This document shows positions 3,620 to 63,807 of a DNA stretch of 64,000 nucleotides, one piece after another (within the stretch, counting starts at the first letter, position 1; each line of letters starts with the position of its first letter). Where the stretch lies: contig CP107208.1 in assembly GCA_025758045.1 (NCBI GenBank), positions 753,298-817,297 on the forward strand. The letters are read 5' to 3'. Position numbers and translations under genes: made by a program. The DNA comes from Oscillospiraceae bacterium. GTDB taxonomy: Bacteria > Bacillota > Clostridia > Oscillospirales > Ruminococcaceae. The notes beneath the pieces were generated by a model. The model did no database searches, was not told the DNA's origin, and saw only the letters and a list, made by a program, of their open reading frames with translations.

Positions 3620-3796
3620 ATGAAAAACGGTGATGACCTTTATAACGCAGATCAAGCTGTACGCAATTTTTGCGACAGCCATCCTGGTGACTTGAGTGAA
3701 GCTGAACATGAAGAACTCCGTACTCTTCTTCAGGAGCGCGCAAGTGCCATGTCCGATGTTTTGGGTACTACAATTCATTCTGTTGGCGAAGATTAA
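3620..3796 (+). CDS. Small hypothetical protein (58 aa)
   Basis: ATG at 3620 is preceded by the strong RBS AGGAAGGAGA (3601-3610). The gene is visibly lower in GC than its flanks. I recognise no family for it. Confidence 0.4.
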   Translation: MKNGDDLYNADQAVRNFCDSHPGDLSEAEHEELRTLLQERASAMSDVLGTTIHSVGED

Positions 3797-3846
3797 CTAG
3801 CATTCCCTGCATTATTGCATATTCTACTTTTTGAGTTCAAAAGAAG

Positions 3847-3887
3847 GAGCCGTTGTGTCATCTAACGCATGACACAACGGCTCTTTT
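3847..3887. terminator. Bidirectional intrinsic terminator
   Basis: Perfect 15-bp stem GAGCCGTTGTGTCAT / ATGACACAACGGCTC followed by TTTT. Confidence 0.7.
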
Positions 3888-3894
3888 GCAATAT

Positions 3895-5223
3895 TCACAA
3901 TTTTAGTTTCTTGCAGGTGTAGAAATAGTACGGGATCTCGAAGCAGAGCATGACGCACCAACCGAAGGCACAGGCATAGGCGATACCGGGCAGGCCGATG
4001 CGGGGGGCCAGCAGAGCAGCTCCGAGGGCGCGCAGGCCGGCCTGCAGGCAGGTGCCGATGAGGGTAGTGGTCATCTTGCCCATACCGCGGTAGAAGCCCT
4101 GGAAGCCATTGGTCAGCGCAGGCAGGGCGTAGAACAGCGCCATATAGCCTAGGTATTGGCTGCCCAGGGTCACGATCTCGGCGGCACCCTCCCCTGCCAC
4201 AAACAGGCTGACGACAGGCGCACGCAGCAGCCAGGTCAGGCTGCCCACCAGCAGCCAGTAGCACAACTCCAACCGGATGCCCACGCGGAAGCCGGGGCGG
4301 ATGCGCTCCTTTTGGTTGGCGCCGCGGTTCTGGGCAATGTAAGTGGTAATGGCGGTGGCAATACTTTGCTGCGGGGTAAAGGCGAAGTCATCCACACGGG
4401 TGACAGCGTTGAACGCGGCGATGGCCTGCACACCCAGCGCGTTGACCTGTCCCTGGATCAGCACCTTGCAGACAGGCTGTACCGCCTGCTGTAAGGCTGT
4501 GACAGCGCCATACTGCAAAATGCGCCCCAGCAGCGCCGGGCGGATGCGCCACTGGCTGTGCGCCGGGCAAAGCTGCGGCACATGGCGCATCATGTACCAA
4601 GCGGCCATGATGGCGCTGGCGGCCTCGGCCACCACGGTGGTGACGGCGCTGCAAACGATACCAAACCCCAGTCCGCCGATAAGCACGATGTCCAGCACGG
4701 CGTTGAGCACGGCGGAAAACGCCAGAAATTTGAGCGGCGTTTTGGAGTCACCCACACTTTTCAGGCCCGCCGCCAGCGCGTTATAGAAAAACGTAAACGG
4801 CGCGCCCAAAAACGTGATGCGCAGATAAATGCCGGTACTATGCAAAATTTCATCGGGCACCGCCAGGCTGTGCAAAATCAGCGGCGCGGCGGCCATGCCC
4901 AGCAGTGCCACGGCACAGCAGAGCACTGCGCCGAACAGCAGGGTCGTAGCCAACGTTTCCTTTAGGCGTTCCTCATTTTTCGCGCCGAAGGCCTCGCTCA
5001 TCAGCACACCGGCGCCGATGCATAGCCCGCTGACGGCCAGGATGACCAGGTTCATCACCGGGCCGGCAATGCCCTCGGCCGCCAGGGCGTCCTGCCCGAT
5101 GAAGCGGCCCGCGATGATGGAATCCACCGCATTATAGGCCAGCTGCAGCCAGTTGCCCAGCAGCAGCGGCACCGCATAAAAGAACAGGTGCCCCAGCGGG
5201 GCACCCTTTGTCATATCACGCAT
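3895..5223 (-). CDS. MATE family efflux transporter
   Basis: Polytopic membrane protein whose N-terminus (LFFYAVPLLLGNWLQLAYNAVDSIIAGRF) is typical of MATE transporters. I trimmed the start to the ATG at 5221-5223, directly after the upstream gene's stop. Confidence 0.85.
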   Translation of the reverse strand: MRDMTKGAPLGHLFFYAVPLLLGNWLQLAYNAVDSIIAGRFIGQDALAAEGIAGPVMNLVILAVSGLCIGAGVLMSEAFGAKNEERLKETLATTLLFGAVLCCAVALLGMAAAPLILHSLAVPDEILHSTGIYLRITFLGAPFTFFYNALAAGLKSVGDSKTPLKFLAFSAVLNAVLDIVLIGGLGFGIVCSAVTTVVAEAASAIMAAWYMMRHVPQLCPAHSQWRIRPALLGRILQYGAVTALQQAVQPVCKVLIQGQVNALGVQAIAAFNAVTRVDDFAFTPQQSIATAITTYIAQNRGANQKERIRPGFRVGIRLELCYWLLVGSLTWLLRAPVVSLFVAGEGAAEIVTLGSQYLGYMALFYALPALTNGFQGFYRGMGKMTTTLIGTCLQAGLRALGAALLAPRIGLPGIAYACAFGWCVMLCFEIPYYFYTCKKLKL

Positions 5224-28571: not shown

Positions 28572-28751
28572 TTAGGGCAGCACCGCACAATTCCCGCCTT
28601 ACGGCTTAAGCACCGCTCCGGCGGCTGCGGCACGGCAACTGCGTTGCCAAAATGCTCGATAATACACAAAGTATTATCTGCGCTTTTGGCTTAGCAGCTG
28701 CCGCACCTCGCTCGCCGTATCGGCACTTAGAATTATGCGGTATTGCCTTAG
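28572..28751 (-). mobile_element. MITE-like hairpin element, copy A (172-nt core 28576-28747, TSD TTAG/TTAG)
   Basis: Near-identical to copies D and E in reverse orientation. It has the terminal inverted repeats and is flanked by TTAG at 28572-28575 and 28748-28751. Confidence 0.75.
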
Positions 28752-29194: not shown

Positions 29195-29235
29195 GGTTTT
29201 TCCTTATACAAATATAAGTTTGTGCTTAAGGGTAG

Positions 29236-29345
29236 GCTCTCTCCCCTACCCGCTTCGCGGGGCCGCTTACGCGGCCGGACCCCTCTGTCGCTACGCGACG
29301 TCTCCCCACGCTGTGGGGAGTCACCCTCCCAGAGGGGGCCTTTTG
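29236..29345. repeat. Tandem array of five short GC-rich hairpins
   Basis: CCCGC-TTC-GCGGG, GCCGC-TTAC-GCGGC, GTCGC-TAC-GCGAC, CTCCCCAC-GCT-GTGGGGAG and CCCTC-CCA-GAGGG in series. Confidence 0.5.
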
Positions 29346-29360
29346 GCAGAAGATGCTTAT

Positions 29361-29716
29361 TTAGGGCAATACCGCATAATTCTAAGTGCCGATACGGCGA
29401 GCGAGGTGCGGCAGATGCTAAGCCAAAAGCGCAGATAATACTTTGTGCTGCAAAGGTGAGCGCCGCCAGTGGCGGATACAGCGAACCGAAGCAGGGGCAG
29501 CGGTCGCAGAGTGCGAGGGGCTTTTGTCCCCGAAGCACGATGCGGGTACCGCAACCCGACATTATCGAGCATTTTGGCAACGCAGATGCCGTGCCGCACA
29601 CCGAGCCGCAGCGAGGCGCTTCGGAGCGCAACCGCCGCTTGCGGCGGCTCTTGGCGCGGAGATCCGCCGGAGCGGTGCTTAAGCCGTTAGGCGGGAATTG
29701 TGCGGTGTTGCCTTAG
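29361..29716 (+). mobile_element. MITE-like element, copy B, long variant (348-nt core 29365-29712, TSD TTAG/TTAG)
   Basis: Same termini as the 172-nt copies. It has an insert of about 113 nt in the apical loop and an insert of about 66 nt in the 3' arm. It is flanked by TTAG at 29361-29364 and 29713-29716. Confidence 0.75.
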
Positions 29717-36248: not shown

Positions 36249-36540
36249 TTGAGGCAATACCGCGCAATTTTAAGTGCCGATACGGCGAGCGAGGTGCGGC
36301 GGCTGCTAAGCAAAAAGCGCAGATAATACTTTGTGCTGCAAAGGTGAGCGCCGCCGGTGGCGGATACAGCGAACCGAAGCAGGGGCAGCGGTCGCAGAGT
36401 GCGAGGGGCTTTTGTCCCCGAAGCACGATGCGGGTACCGCAACCCGACATTCTCGAGCATTTTTGCAACGCAGACGGTGCGCCGCAGCCGCTGGAGCGGT
36501 GCTTAAGCCGTCAGGCGGAAATTGTGCGGTGTTGCCTCGG
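36249..36540 (+). mobile_element. MITE-like element, copy C, intermediate variant (284-nt core 36253-36536)
   Basis: It has the apical-loop insert but not the 3'-arm insert. It is more diverged than the others, and its flanking 4-mers (TTGA/TCGG) do not match. Confidence 0.7.
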
Positions 36541-46900: not shown

Positions 46901-47002
46901 GCAGCAGTGGGATGCGGGACCCGCACCGCAGGCCGCTTTGGCCTTTCGTCCTGCCACAACTCCCCGTTGGTCAGGCACTTTACGCGCGTGTCCCTACTCT
47001 GC
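46901..47002 (-). promoter_or_regulatory. THF (tetrahydrofolate) riboswitch
   Basis: The minus strand reads GCAGAGUAG..GCGUAAAGUG..GGGGA..ACGAAAG..GCGGUG..GCAUCC..CUGC, matching the conserved THF-I core and P1. Downstream lie a GGTGTGC/GCACACC hairpin and an RBS-sequestering helix (GCCTCCTTGC/GCAAGGAGG). Confidence 0.85.
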
Positions 47003-47026
47003 GAAAAAATATTGGGTTACAAGCCT

Positions 47027-48826: not shown

Positions 48827-49120
48827 TAAAAAAAGACAGCCCATTCGCCCTGCATTAGGACGAATCGCTGTCTTGGATCCGCGGTGCCACCTAAATTACC
48901 GCAGCCGAAATAATGGCATACGGTCACTTTTTCCGTACACGTTCACCTTTGAAACGCTGCCGCTGTAACGCACGGCCTGCGGCATCCCCTACTCCTCTGC
49001 GGTTTCAGTTTGCAGCTGTCAGGTGTTCTTTCGCGCCCCGTCCCCGTCCCGGCTTACACCAGATGTCGGGCTCTCTGTGCGGATGTTGGGCGGTACTTTT
49101 CCCGGTCATCGCTTTTATCA
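48827..49120 (-). promoter_or_regulatory. T-box leader (probable Asn specifier) upstream of asnB
   Basis: The minus strand has AGAGAG and GGUGUAA stem I motifs and the T-box sequence AAUUUAGGUGGCACCGCGG (48879-48897). A terminator, AAGACAGC...GCTGTCTTTTTTT, follows at 48827-48874. The candidate specifier is AAC-A at 49025-49027. Confidence 0.8.
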
Positions 49121-51883: not shown

Positions 51884-52063
51884 CTAGGGCAATACCGCAT
51901 AATTCTAAGTGCCGATACGGCGAGCGAGGTGCGGCAGCTGCTAAGCCAAAAGCGCAGATAATACTTTGTGTATTATCGAGCATTTTGGCAACGCAGATGC
52001 CGTGCCGCAGCCGCCGGAGCGGTGCTTAAGCCGTCAGGCGGGAATTGTGCGGTGTTGCTCTAG
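51884..52063 (+). mobile_element. MITE-like hairpin element, copy D (172-nt core 51888-52059, TSD CTAG/CTAG)
   Basis: It has the terminal inverted repeats and the rod-like fold. It is flanked by CTAG at 51884-51887 and 52060-52063. Confidence 0.8.
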
Positions 52064-57323: not shown

Positions 57324-57600
57324 AAAAAACAGCCTTTGCCTCTTTCGTTCAAAGAGACAAAGGCTGTGAATCAGCTCTCTGCGGTACCACTCTTTTTGGA
57401 GCGCCTGCTCCCACCTCATGGGCTTCCAACAAAGCCCGGCACTGTAACGGGTGCGCCCGTATCCCCCTAATAGGTTTCGTTCGGGTGATCTGCTCCGGGA
57501 TCAGTTCGCAGCTCGTTTCTCCTTCTGCCTTGCACCGACCGGCAGTTCTCTGCAGGGAACGTGACTGTTACTAACTTCCCATCCAAGCATTTAGATTTGT
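57324..57600 (-). promoter_or_regulatory. T-box leader (probable Leu specifier) upstream of ilvBNCD
   Basis: The minus strand has AGAGAA and GGUGCAA stem I motifs and the T-box sequence AAAAAGAGUGGUACCGCAG (57379-57397). A strong terminator, ACAGCCTTTGTCTCTTT...AAAGAGGCAAAGGCTGTTTTTT, follows at 57324-57366. The candidate specifier is CUG-A at 57502-57504. Confidence 0.8.
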
Positions 57601-62331: not shown

Positions 62332-62511
62332 ATAGGGCAATACTGCATAATTCTAAGTGCCGATACGGCGAGCGAGGTGCGGCAGCTGCTAAGCCAAAAG
62401 CGCAGATAATACTTTGTGTATTATCGAGCATTTTGGCAACGCAGATGCCGTGCCGCAGCCGCCGGAGCGGTGCTTAAGCCGTTAGGCGGGAATTGTGCGG
62501 TGTTGCCATAG
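62332..62511 (+). mobile_element. MITE-like hairpin element, copy E (172-nt core 62336-62507, TSD ATAG/ATAG)
   Basis: Nearly identical to copy D. It is flanked by ATAG at 62332-62335 and 62508-62511. Confidence 0.8.
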
Positions 62512-62517
62512 GCATAC

Positions 62518-63627: not shown

Positions 63628-63807
63628 TTAAGGCAACACCGCACAATTCCCGCTTTACAGCTTAAGCACCGCTGCTACGGCTGCGAAGCACAATCTGCGT
63701 TGCAAAAATGCTCGATAATACACAAAGTATTATCTGCGCTTTTTGCTTAGCAGCTTGTACTTCTCGCTCGCCGCATCGGCACTTAGAATTATGCGGTGTT
63801 GCCTTAA
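63628..63807 (-). mobile_element. MITE-like hairpin element, copy F (172-nt core 63632-63803, TSD TTAA/TTAA)
   Basis: A diverged copy in reverse orientation. It is flanked by TTAA at 63628-63631 and 63804-63807. The arms carry paired compensatory substitutions. Confidence 0.75.

Follow-up and report, generated by a model that had tools for sequence, protein, structure and literature searches.

A hairpin-forming MITE family of gut Oscillospiraceae, probably mobilised by IS5-family elements with matching ends

Six repeats in the window (the whole 64-kb stretch of DNA analysed here) very probably represent a non-coding MITE family of gut Oscillospiraceae, with 18-bp ends recognised by the transposase of ~1.13-kb IS5-family insertion sequences acting in trans and with a strand-specific hairpin; we put the probability of this reading at roughly 0.85. 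The genome that carries them is Gemmiger-like: the ArgRS encoded in the window is identical to UYJ44276.1, which shares a 90% cluster with Gemmiger formicilis proteins.

RESULTS

Six copies of the element lie between genes in the window

We searched the window for the 18-bp terminal inverted repeat GGCAAYACCGCAYAATTC, allowing up to two mismatches and using 100 shuffles as the control, and found 12 matches where 0 were expected. These 12 matches pair into exactly six elements, the same six that had been predicted. Four of them are 172 nt long, and the other two measure 284 and 348 nt. BLAST of copy D against the window found no seventh copy. The copies are as follows.

Copy A: 28576-28747, minus strand, 172 nt, flanked by TTAG/TTAG at 28572-28575 and 28748-28751
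Copy B: 29365-29712, plus strand, 348 nt, flanked by TTAG/TTAG at 29361-29364 and 29713-29716
Copy C: 36253-36536, plus strand, 284 nt, with the non-matching flanks TTGA/TCGG
Copy D: 51888-52059, plus strand, 172 nt, flanked by CTAG/CTAG at 51884-51887 and 52060-52063
Copy E: 62336-62507, plus strand, 172 nt, flanked by ATAG/ATAG at 62332-62335 and 62508-62511
Copy F: 63632-63803, minus strand, 172 nt, flanked by TTAA/TTAA at 63628-63631 and 63804-63807

Perfect 4-bp flanks are thus present in five of the six copies, copy C being the exception, just as originally described. The accompanying claim that all copies start and end alike holds for the 18-bp repeat, which every copy carries, but not as strict identity: copy A ends in ...GCTGCC and copy D in ...GTTGCT, copy E starts with GGCAATACTGCA, and copy C has one or two mismatches at each end. 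Similarly, copy C had been taken as the most diverged copy, and it is indeed the most decayed of the six, but the two longer copies are not merely diverged. Copy C consists of the core and a module X of 113 nt at the hairpin tip (36336-36448), while copy B consists of the 172-nt core, module X (29448-29560) and a module Y of about 64-67 nt in the 3' arm (~29598-29664). We considered the modules as independent nested elements and rejected this, since each was found only within copies of the window MITE family; they are therefore subfamily-specific extensions. Copies A, D and E differ from one another at only 3-4 of 172 positions, and copy F differs from these three at 23 of 172, with many of the changes compensatory, which marks it as a diverged subfamily.

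All six copies are intergenic and sit among housekeeping genes (ArgRS, DUF1934, racemase, flavodoxin, VanZ-like, ilvD, SDR and aldose epimerase), in DNA of 59% G+C. The right-hand TTAG of copy A supplies the TAA stop codon of the minus-strand DUF1934 gene, and in copy B the TTAG duplication and the racemase gene's TAA stop codon overlap. Copies D and E lie between convergent genes (VanZ-like and ilvD, and SDR and aldose epimerase, respectively), and copy F is upstream of the aldose-epimerase gene. The elements measure 172-348 nt within the window and 35-348 nt in other sequences, which is the size of bacterial MITEs and leaves no room for the matching IS's transposase of ~325 aa. Neither a transposase nor a full-length IS was found within the 64 kb, in agreement with the original prediction.

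Two other structured features of the window were noted. A G+C-rich, hairpin-laden stretch of ~110 nt (29230-29340), between copy B and the DUF1934 start codon, is 90-100% conserved in all strain contigs, with no repeat elsewhere in the window or the collected loci, and may be a leader or other structured element. The Rfam matches at the gathering threshold in the window are two T-box leaders and a THF riboswitch, at 48853-49118, 57350-57594 and 46903-47003, all on the minus strand; they have no connection with the MITEs but fit a host among the Firmicutes.

Empty sites carry a single copy of the target 4-mer

If the elements inserted with a 4-bp duplication, as had been proposed, strains that lack a copy should carry the flanking 4-mer once. 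For sites A and B we compared contigs that encode exactly the window's DUF1934 protein and that are about 98-99% identical to the window, and for site E contigs that encode the window's aldose epimerase. Copy A was present in all 10 of the 10 strain contigs retrieved, and around copy F every strain contig spanning the site has an intergenic region of equal length. Sites B and E, in contrast, are polymorphic, and at both loci the empty alleles have one copy of the target 4-mer.

Site B is empty in contig L004, which reads ...ACTTA-CTAA-ATAAGC (...ACTTACTAAATAAGC) with a single CTAA, where filled alleles read ...CTAA-element-CTAA.... In total this site occurs in five states: empty (L004), 95 nt (L005), 172 nt (L001 and L006), 284 nt (L002 and L003) and 348 nt (the window). 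The filled alleles have the element at an identical position and in the same orientation in every strain, and all of them share a site-specific SNP, GCAGATGC compared to GCAGCTGC in other copies, which we read as a single insertion followed by change in place. The 95-nt variant corresponds to a symmetric loss of the hairpin tip.

Site E is filled in the window and in L368 and is empty in L369, L370 and L372, which read ...AAT-ATAG-CATACC with a single ATAG. The filled allele, ATAG-element-ATAG-G-CATACC, has one G beyond a clean 4-bp duplication (window 62508-62512), which could be a footprint of insertion or repair, or else the empty alleles could carry an excision scar. The suggestion that the family has spread recently, drawn from the near-identity of copies A, D and E, holds up.

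Several further differences were seen at these sites. The copy at site E in L368 (2373-2765) has another apical loop, ...AAGACATCCAGTATT... rather than the ...AATACACAAAGTATT... of window 62336-62507; both loops are common among other copies, and their occurrence at the same insertion suggests gene conversion or exchange between copies. After copy A, L004 has a second DUF1934-like gene (3633-4070) and L009 and L010 have unrelated genes directly adjoining, while L007 lacks the whole racemase-DUF1934 spacer, copy B included. These differences near MITEs are either true rearrangements at the repeats or assembly chimeras.

One repeat is shared by many diverged cores in bacteria and phages

Stretches with the exact repeat number at least 120 in species-representative genomes and at least 120 in IMG/VR contigs, and 26 records of uncultured gut phages also contain it. 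Hosts among the matches listed are Oscillospiraceae, Ruminococcus, Gemmiger, Subdoligranulum, Faecalibacterium, 'Candidatus Cibiobacter qucibialis', Acutalibacter, Butyricicoccus and Ruthenibacterium, and several of the repeat-bearing viral contigs carry genuine phage genes. In the plasmid database the one relative found was a sister family of 73% identity, from records of Subdoligranulum variabile.

Among the matches listed, the genomes and viral contigs yielded 123 complete elements, 79 of which have perfect 4-bp flanks, compared to ~0.5 expected by chance. The duplications are TTAA in 22 cases and TTAG/CTAA in 25, and the remainder are other A+T-rich 4-mers. Thus, transposition with a 4-bp duplication at a TA-centred target, which had been deduced from the window copies, is upheld both by the empty sites and by this larger set. 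The elements form more than 30 sequence clusters, or core types, of 35-348 nt with modes at 172 and 161 nt, and have little in common beyond the repeat and a few motifs; the repeat itself is common to these >30 diverged cores across Oscillospiraceae, Ruminococcaceae and their phages. Centre-deleted variants of 35-135 nt retain the repeats and are still found with target duplications, and these numerous variants look like losses of the hairpin tip, as would be expected of unstable long palindromes.

Members of clusters 8, 9 and 19 from genome contigs contain nested, related MITEs that end in GGGAAYCTCTAAYAATTC or GGAAACACCGACAAATTA, and at least one nested MITE in cluster 19 has a perfect TTCA/TTCA duplication. 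The two ends of the type GGGAAYCTCTAAYAATTC differ by C/T at positions 6 and 13, just as those of the repeat considered here do. Three viral contigs (L146:1920, L169:1418 and L242:11848) also have a solo terminal repeat (GGCAACACCGCACAATTCAGGGGGAACCGCCGCATG...) directly upstream of the RBS and ATG of a long conserved ORF, with 671 aa or more.

IS5-family elements have the same ends and the same targets

A helper was not found next to the MITEs themselves. Exact-repeat scans of ~1.85 Mb around 240 listed MITE-bearing stretches gave no IS with these ends; the 240 stretches also had no repeat pairs 600-4000 bp apart, except for two neighbouring MITEs, and no recurrent sequence beside solo repeats. 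ORFs beside solo repeats, or flanked by any inverted repeat, were considered as helpers and proved to be ordinary genes and one unrelated HTH_38 protein, and the recurrent ORF families of the viral loci were phage structural and lysis genes.

A phmmer search of the collected loci with E. coli IS5 InsH matched one ORF, L227:7296-8321, with E = 1.6e-80. Close relatives of this element in viral contigs have the left end GGCAATCCCGCACAAAG, which agrees with the MITE repeat at 14 of its 15 outer nt, directly after TTAG, TTAA, TTAC and TTAA, in five contexts. The more distantly related elements belong to the classic IS5 group and have CTAG or TTAA duplications; one type among them ends in GGGAACCTCTTCACGAATC, and the end of the nested MITE type GGGAAYCTCTAAYAATTC resembles it. 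On L253, the same contig as L227, this first-lead element adjoins a second, partial copy of itself (102-362 and 978-2100); its ends match poorly (GGCAATCCCACACAAAG compared to GGATGTCCCTCATAATTG), and there is no clean duplication.

A protein search, contig look-ups and a scan of metagenomes with aligned transposases gave about 69-70 complete elements of 1125-1168 bp from gut metagenomes with ends GGCAAYACCGCAYA..., a ~1.13-kb clade (NCBIfam NF033581) that is abundant in human-gut metagenomes. Each has one ORF of about 325 aa and terminal repeats of ~18 bp beginning with GG; the ORF matches NF033581 and contains the Pfam domains DDE_Tnp_1 and DUF772. Two of these elements, L334 and L336, end in GGCAACACCGCACAATTCAC, which matches the MITE repeat at 18 of 18 positions and several MITE clusters over 20 nt, so that an IS with matching ends, for which the original prediction had proposed to search, does exist. 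Another, L281, ends in GGCAACACCGCATAA(T) and has a TAAG duplication.

Perfect 4-bp duplications flank 27 of the 70 partner ISs (TTTA, CTAA, TTAG, TTAA and CTAG), and the target spectrum of the MITEs is that of the partner ISs. Among these IS loci (L288-L367 and L379-L383), the flanking 4-mers differ in the other 43 of 70, mostly still TA-centred on both sides (for example TTAG and TTAA); the mismatched flanks are likely chimeric short-read joins across a multi-copy IS, or the result of recombination between copies. The ISs share the terminal 13-20 nt with the MITE, and in a direct comparison the similarity between MITE and IS is limited to the terminal 16-23 nt. Beyond these ends the two are unrelated, so none of the sampled ISs can have given rise to the MITE by simple deletion.

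MITE and partner IS occur together at the species level in Ruthenibacterium lactatiformans. The L334 transposase is KUE74912.1, 'transposase [Ruthenibacterium lactatiformans]', also listed as 'IS5 family transposase [Oscillospiraceae]'; this protein scores 325 bits against NF033581 (cutoff 140). On contig L090 of R. lactatiformans 585-1 there is a 117-nt MITE that has the same 20-nt end and is flanked by an ATAG duplication. We found no IS and MITE on one contig in the 10-kb flanks around one IS variant, no entry for the window's Gemmiger-like genome in the helper-transposase protein lists, and no full-length match to the IS in the plasmid database, where its DNA is partially similar to IS5 and ISKpn26.

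From the matching ends and targets we infer that the partner ISs mobilise the MITEs in trans, and the IS5-group helper suggested by the original prediction agrees with this sequence comparison. The 18-bp terminal repeats would be the ends recognised by the transposase of this Oscillospiraceae IS5-family clade. The DDE transposase, supplied in trans, would insert the element at TA-centred 4-mers (TTAA, TTAG/CTAA or CTAG), and the 4-bp staggered cut would then be repaired into the flanking duplication. In a genome of 59% G+C, such A+T-rich 4-mers would be expected mostly at stop codons and between genes.

One strand forms a conserved hairpin

The plus strand of copy D folds into one long hairpin. 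Folded as RNA it reaches -103 kcal/mol (z = -9.7), compared to -79.5 kcal/mol for the complement, and folded as DNA it reaches -60 kcal/mol (z = -8.8), compared to -46.6 kcal/mol; the element is hairpin-forming, as had been claimed. We aligned 24 distinct 172-nt members, drawn from the window family and the 73%-identical Subdoligranulum family, and examined them for covariation. RNAalifold predicted 55 pairs, 21 of which keep pairing in the 24 sequences through changes on both sides. In this alignment 97.5% of cells are paired, while slid controls have 33-45% paired and none of 500 shuffles reached any of the five measures. A small hairpin exclusive to the 3' arm also covaries, with pair 145:152 being CG in 15 sequences and GC in 9, and there are conserved unpaired motifs, AAAAGCGCAG ... 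CGAGCATTTT.

In the helix formed by the 18-bp repeats only one side varies: of the 24 sequences, 19 have U·G at position 6 and 16 have it at position 13, and most others have C-G there. Overall, G·U cells outnumber A·C cells by 138 to 15, and by 92 to 9 outside the repeat, a count that leans towards the strand used for structure prediction. Only one strand folds well because these G·U (G·T) pairs are used. A comparison free of that lean came from folding both strands of each cluster representative with the repeats removed: the same strand was favoured in 16 of 19 core types, by a mean of 9.3 kcal/mol; the types share ancestry, and these counts are therefore not independent.

The strand asymmetry points to a stage as single-stranded DNA or RNA. 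We considered read-through mRNA as the arena in which a strand-specific fold is selected, but orientation relative to neighbouring genes, by crude ORF calls, is random (13 sense, 18 antisense, 25 convergent and 18 divergent), which makes this explanation of the bias unlikely. This leaves three possible sources: single-stranded DNA arising while the element transposes, RNA transcribed from a promoter within the element, or strand-biased C-to-T mutation acting on an exposed strand. The core hairpin is maintained by compensatory substitutions, and its putative role would lie in the well-folding strand acting, or being exposed, as single-stranded DNA during transposition or as RNA.

DISCUSSION

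Alternative explanations

The hairpin could instead be functionless, which we consider possible but somewhat unlikely. In this case the cores would have been born as perfect palindromes, for example by fold-back synthesis at one IS end, their complementarity would be passive, the excess of G·T would reflect strand-biased C-to-T mutation, and only the repeats would matter. Such an origin is consistent with the restriction of MITE-IS similarity to the terminal nucleotides, with the centre-deleted variants that keep their repeats and target duplications, with the symmetric tip deletion at site B and with the random orientation relative to genes. However, independent fold-back births would not give diverged subfamilies that retain an asymmetric architecture, a covarying 3'-arm hairpin and unpaired motifs. 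Moreover, heteroduplex repair is expected to remove G·T mismatches, yet these make up ~10% of cells, and a mutational bias would itself require one exposed strand.

A stronger form of the preferred reading, that of a MITE moved in trans by the IS5-family transposase, assigns the hairpin a direct part: one strand would have to fold, as single-stranded DNA or RNA, for the DDE transposase to move the element, with the fold pairing both ends into a repeat-like duplex. We regard this as speculative and improbable. If true, a DDE element would be moving by a route that depends on structure and is strand-specific, and this would explain why a same-strand, G·U-tolerant hairpin is kept by more than 30 diverged cores.

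It is very unlikely that the repeats are copies of a structured ncRNA gene or of a cis-regulatory RNA (a terminator or stabiliser) spread by duplication or recombination. The strong covarying fold, the G·U pairs on one strand and the location of copies in 3' and 5' untranslated regions are what such RNAs would show. This reading is nevertheless already contradicted by the empty sites, with exact presence or absence and a duplicated 4-mer at two loci, and further by the perfect target duplications in 79 of 123 elements, by ends identical to those of an IS5-family IS and by the random gene orientation. Nor do Rfam covariance models, a check that had been proposed at the outset, match the element, either in the window at the gathering threshold or on copy D at E ≤ 5.

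Movement by another system, whether REP/BIME with RAYT (HUH-Y1), IS200/IS605-type elements or IS630/mariner-type MITEs (Correia, RUP), might be suggested by the palindromic shape and by the preference for one strand, which is like that of single-strand 'peel and paste' elements, but is extremely improbable, because REP and IS200/IS605 elements insert next to a fixed short motif and are not known to carry terminal inverted repeats or to duplicate their target, and IS630-type elements are known to duplicate TA only, whereas the window elements have terminal repeats that equal the ends of a DDE IS5-family element and a duplicated 4-mer whose outer bases vary (TTAG, CTAG, ATAG and TTAA), the duplication of CTAA being evident from empty site B.

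Relation to known elements

The partner ISs resemble the IS5 group (E. coli IS5 and ISKpn26) in their length of ~1.13 kb, their ORF of ~325 aa with DDE_Tnp_1 and DUF772 (NF033581), their ~18-bp repeats starting with GG and their 4-bp duplication at CTAG/CTAA/TTAA-type targets. They differ from IS5 in the repeat, which is GGCAAYACCGCAYAA.. and not the GGAAGGTGCGAATAAG of IS5 (the latter was seen in L259 and L263); moreover, the hosts here are gut Clostridia, and the window elements themselves probably encode nothing.

In general terms, the window family is like Correia, ERIC, RUP and bcr1 elements, all of which are structured intergenic hairpins. Correia elements (NEMIS) of Neisseria are intergenic MITEs of ~100-160 bp, present in hundreds of copies, with terminal inverted repeats, long hairpins and size variants from internal deletion. 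To our knowledge, they duplicate TA only and have no established cognate transposase. The window family is like them in shape, without sequence similarity, but has a 4-bp duplication and a matching IS5-family IS. ERIC/IRU elements of enterobacteria and bcr1 of the Bacillus cereus group are short, imperfect intergenic palindromes in which substitutions compensatory for the RNA fold have been described, and bcr1, as a Firmicute MITE, makes a short A+T-rich duplication of its target. Their ends, targets and hosts differ from those of the window family, in which one repeat is found across more than 30 diverged cores in many genera and in phages too.

The element is a MITE of a known general sort with a probable IS5-family helper, and we found no specific description of the family. 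A full-text literature search with the repeat sequence returned only unrelated primers, and a search for work on MITEs of these taxa returned only one bulk survey (Nadal-Molero et al., Nucleic Acids Res 2024, PMC11602168), in which MITE-Tracker was applied to 183,232 genomes and which reports MITEs shared by gut bacteria and viral contigs, with 33 new assignments to 'Gemmiger phage' among them. The window family may well be contained, unnamed, in that catalogue; in the text of the paper we found no sequence, repeat, target, partner IS or structure for it.

Significance of the family

Common Oscillospiraceae of the human gut (Gemmiger, Subdoligranulum, Faecalibacterium-like, Ruminococcus and Ruthenibacterium) carry the family at high density, with six copies in the 64 kb of the window. 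Many contigs terminate inside a copy, and the MITE therefore probably breaks short-read assemblies. Since it occurs in phage genomes and differs between strains, it is usable as a strain marker and as a link between phage and host. Copies on stop codons or in untranslated regions may alter mRNA ends. Unlike that of Correia and ERIC elements, the partner transposase of this family is identifiable, which makes it testable why bacterial MITEs are hairpins and whether it is the DNA or the RNA fold that matters.
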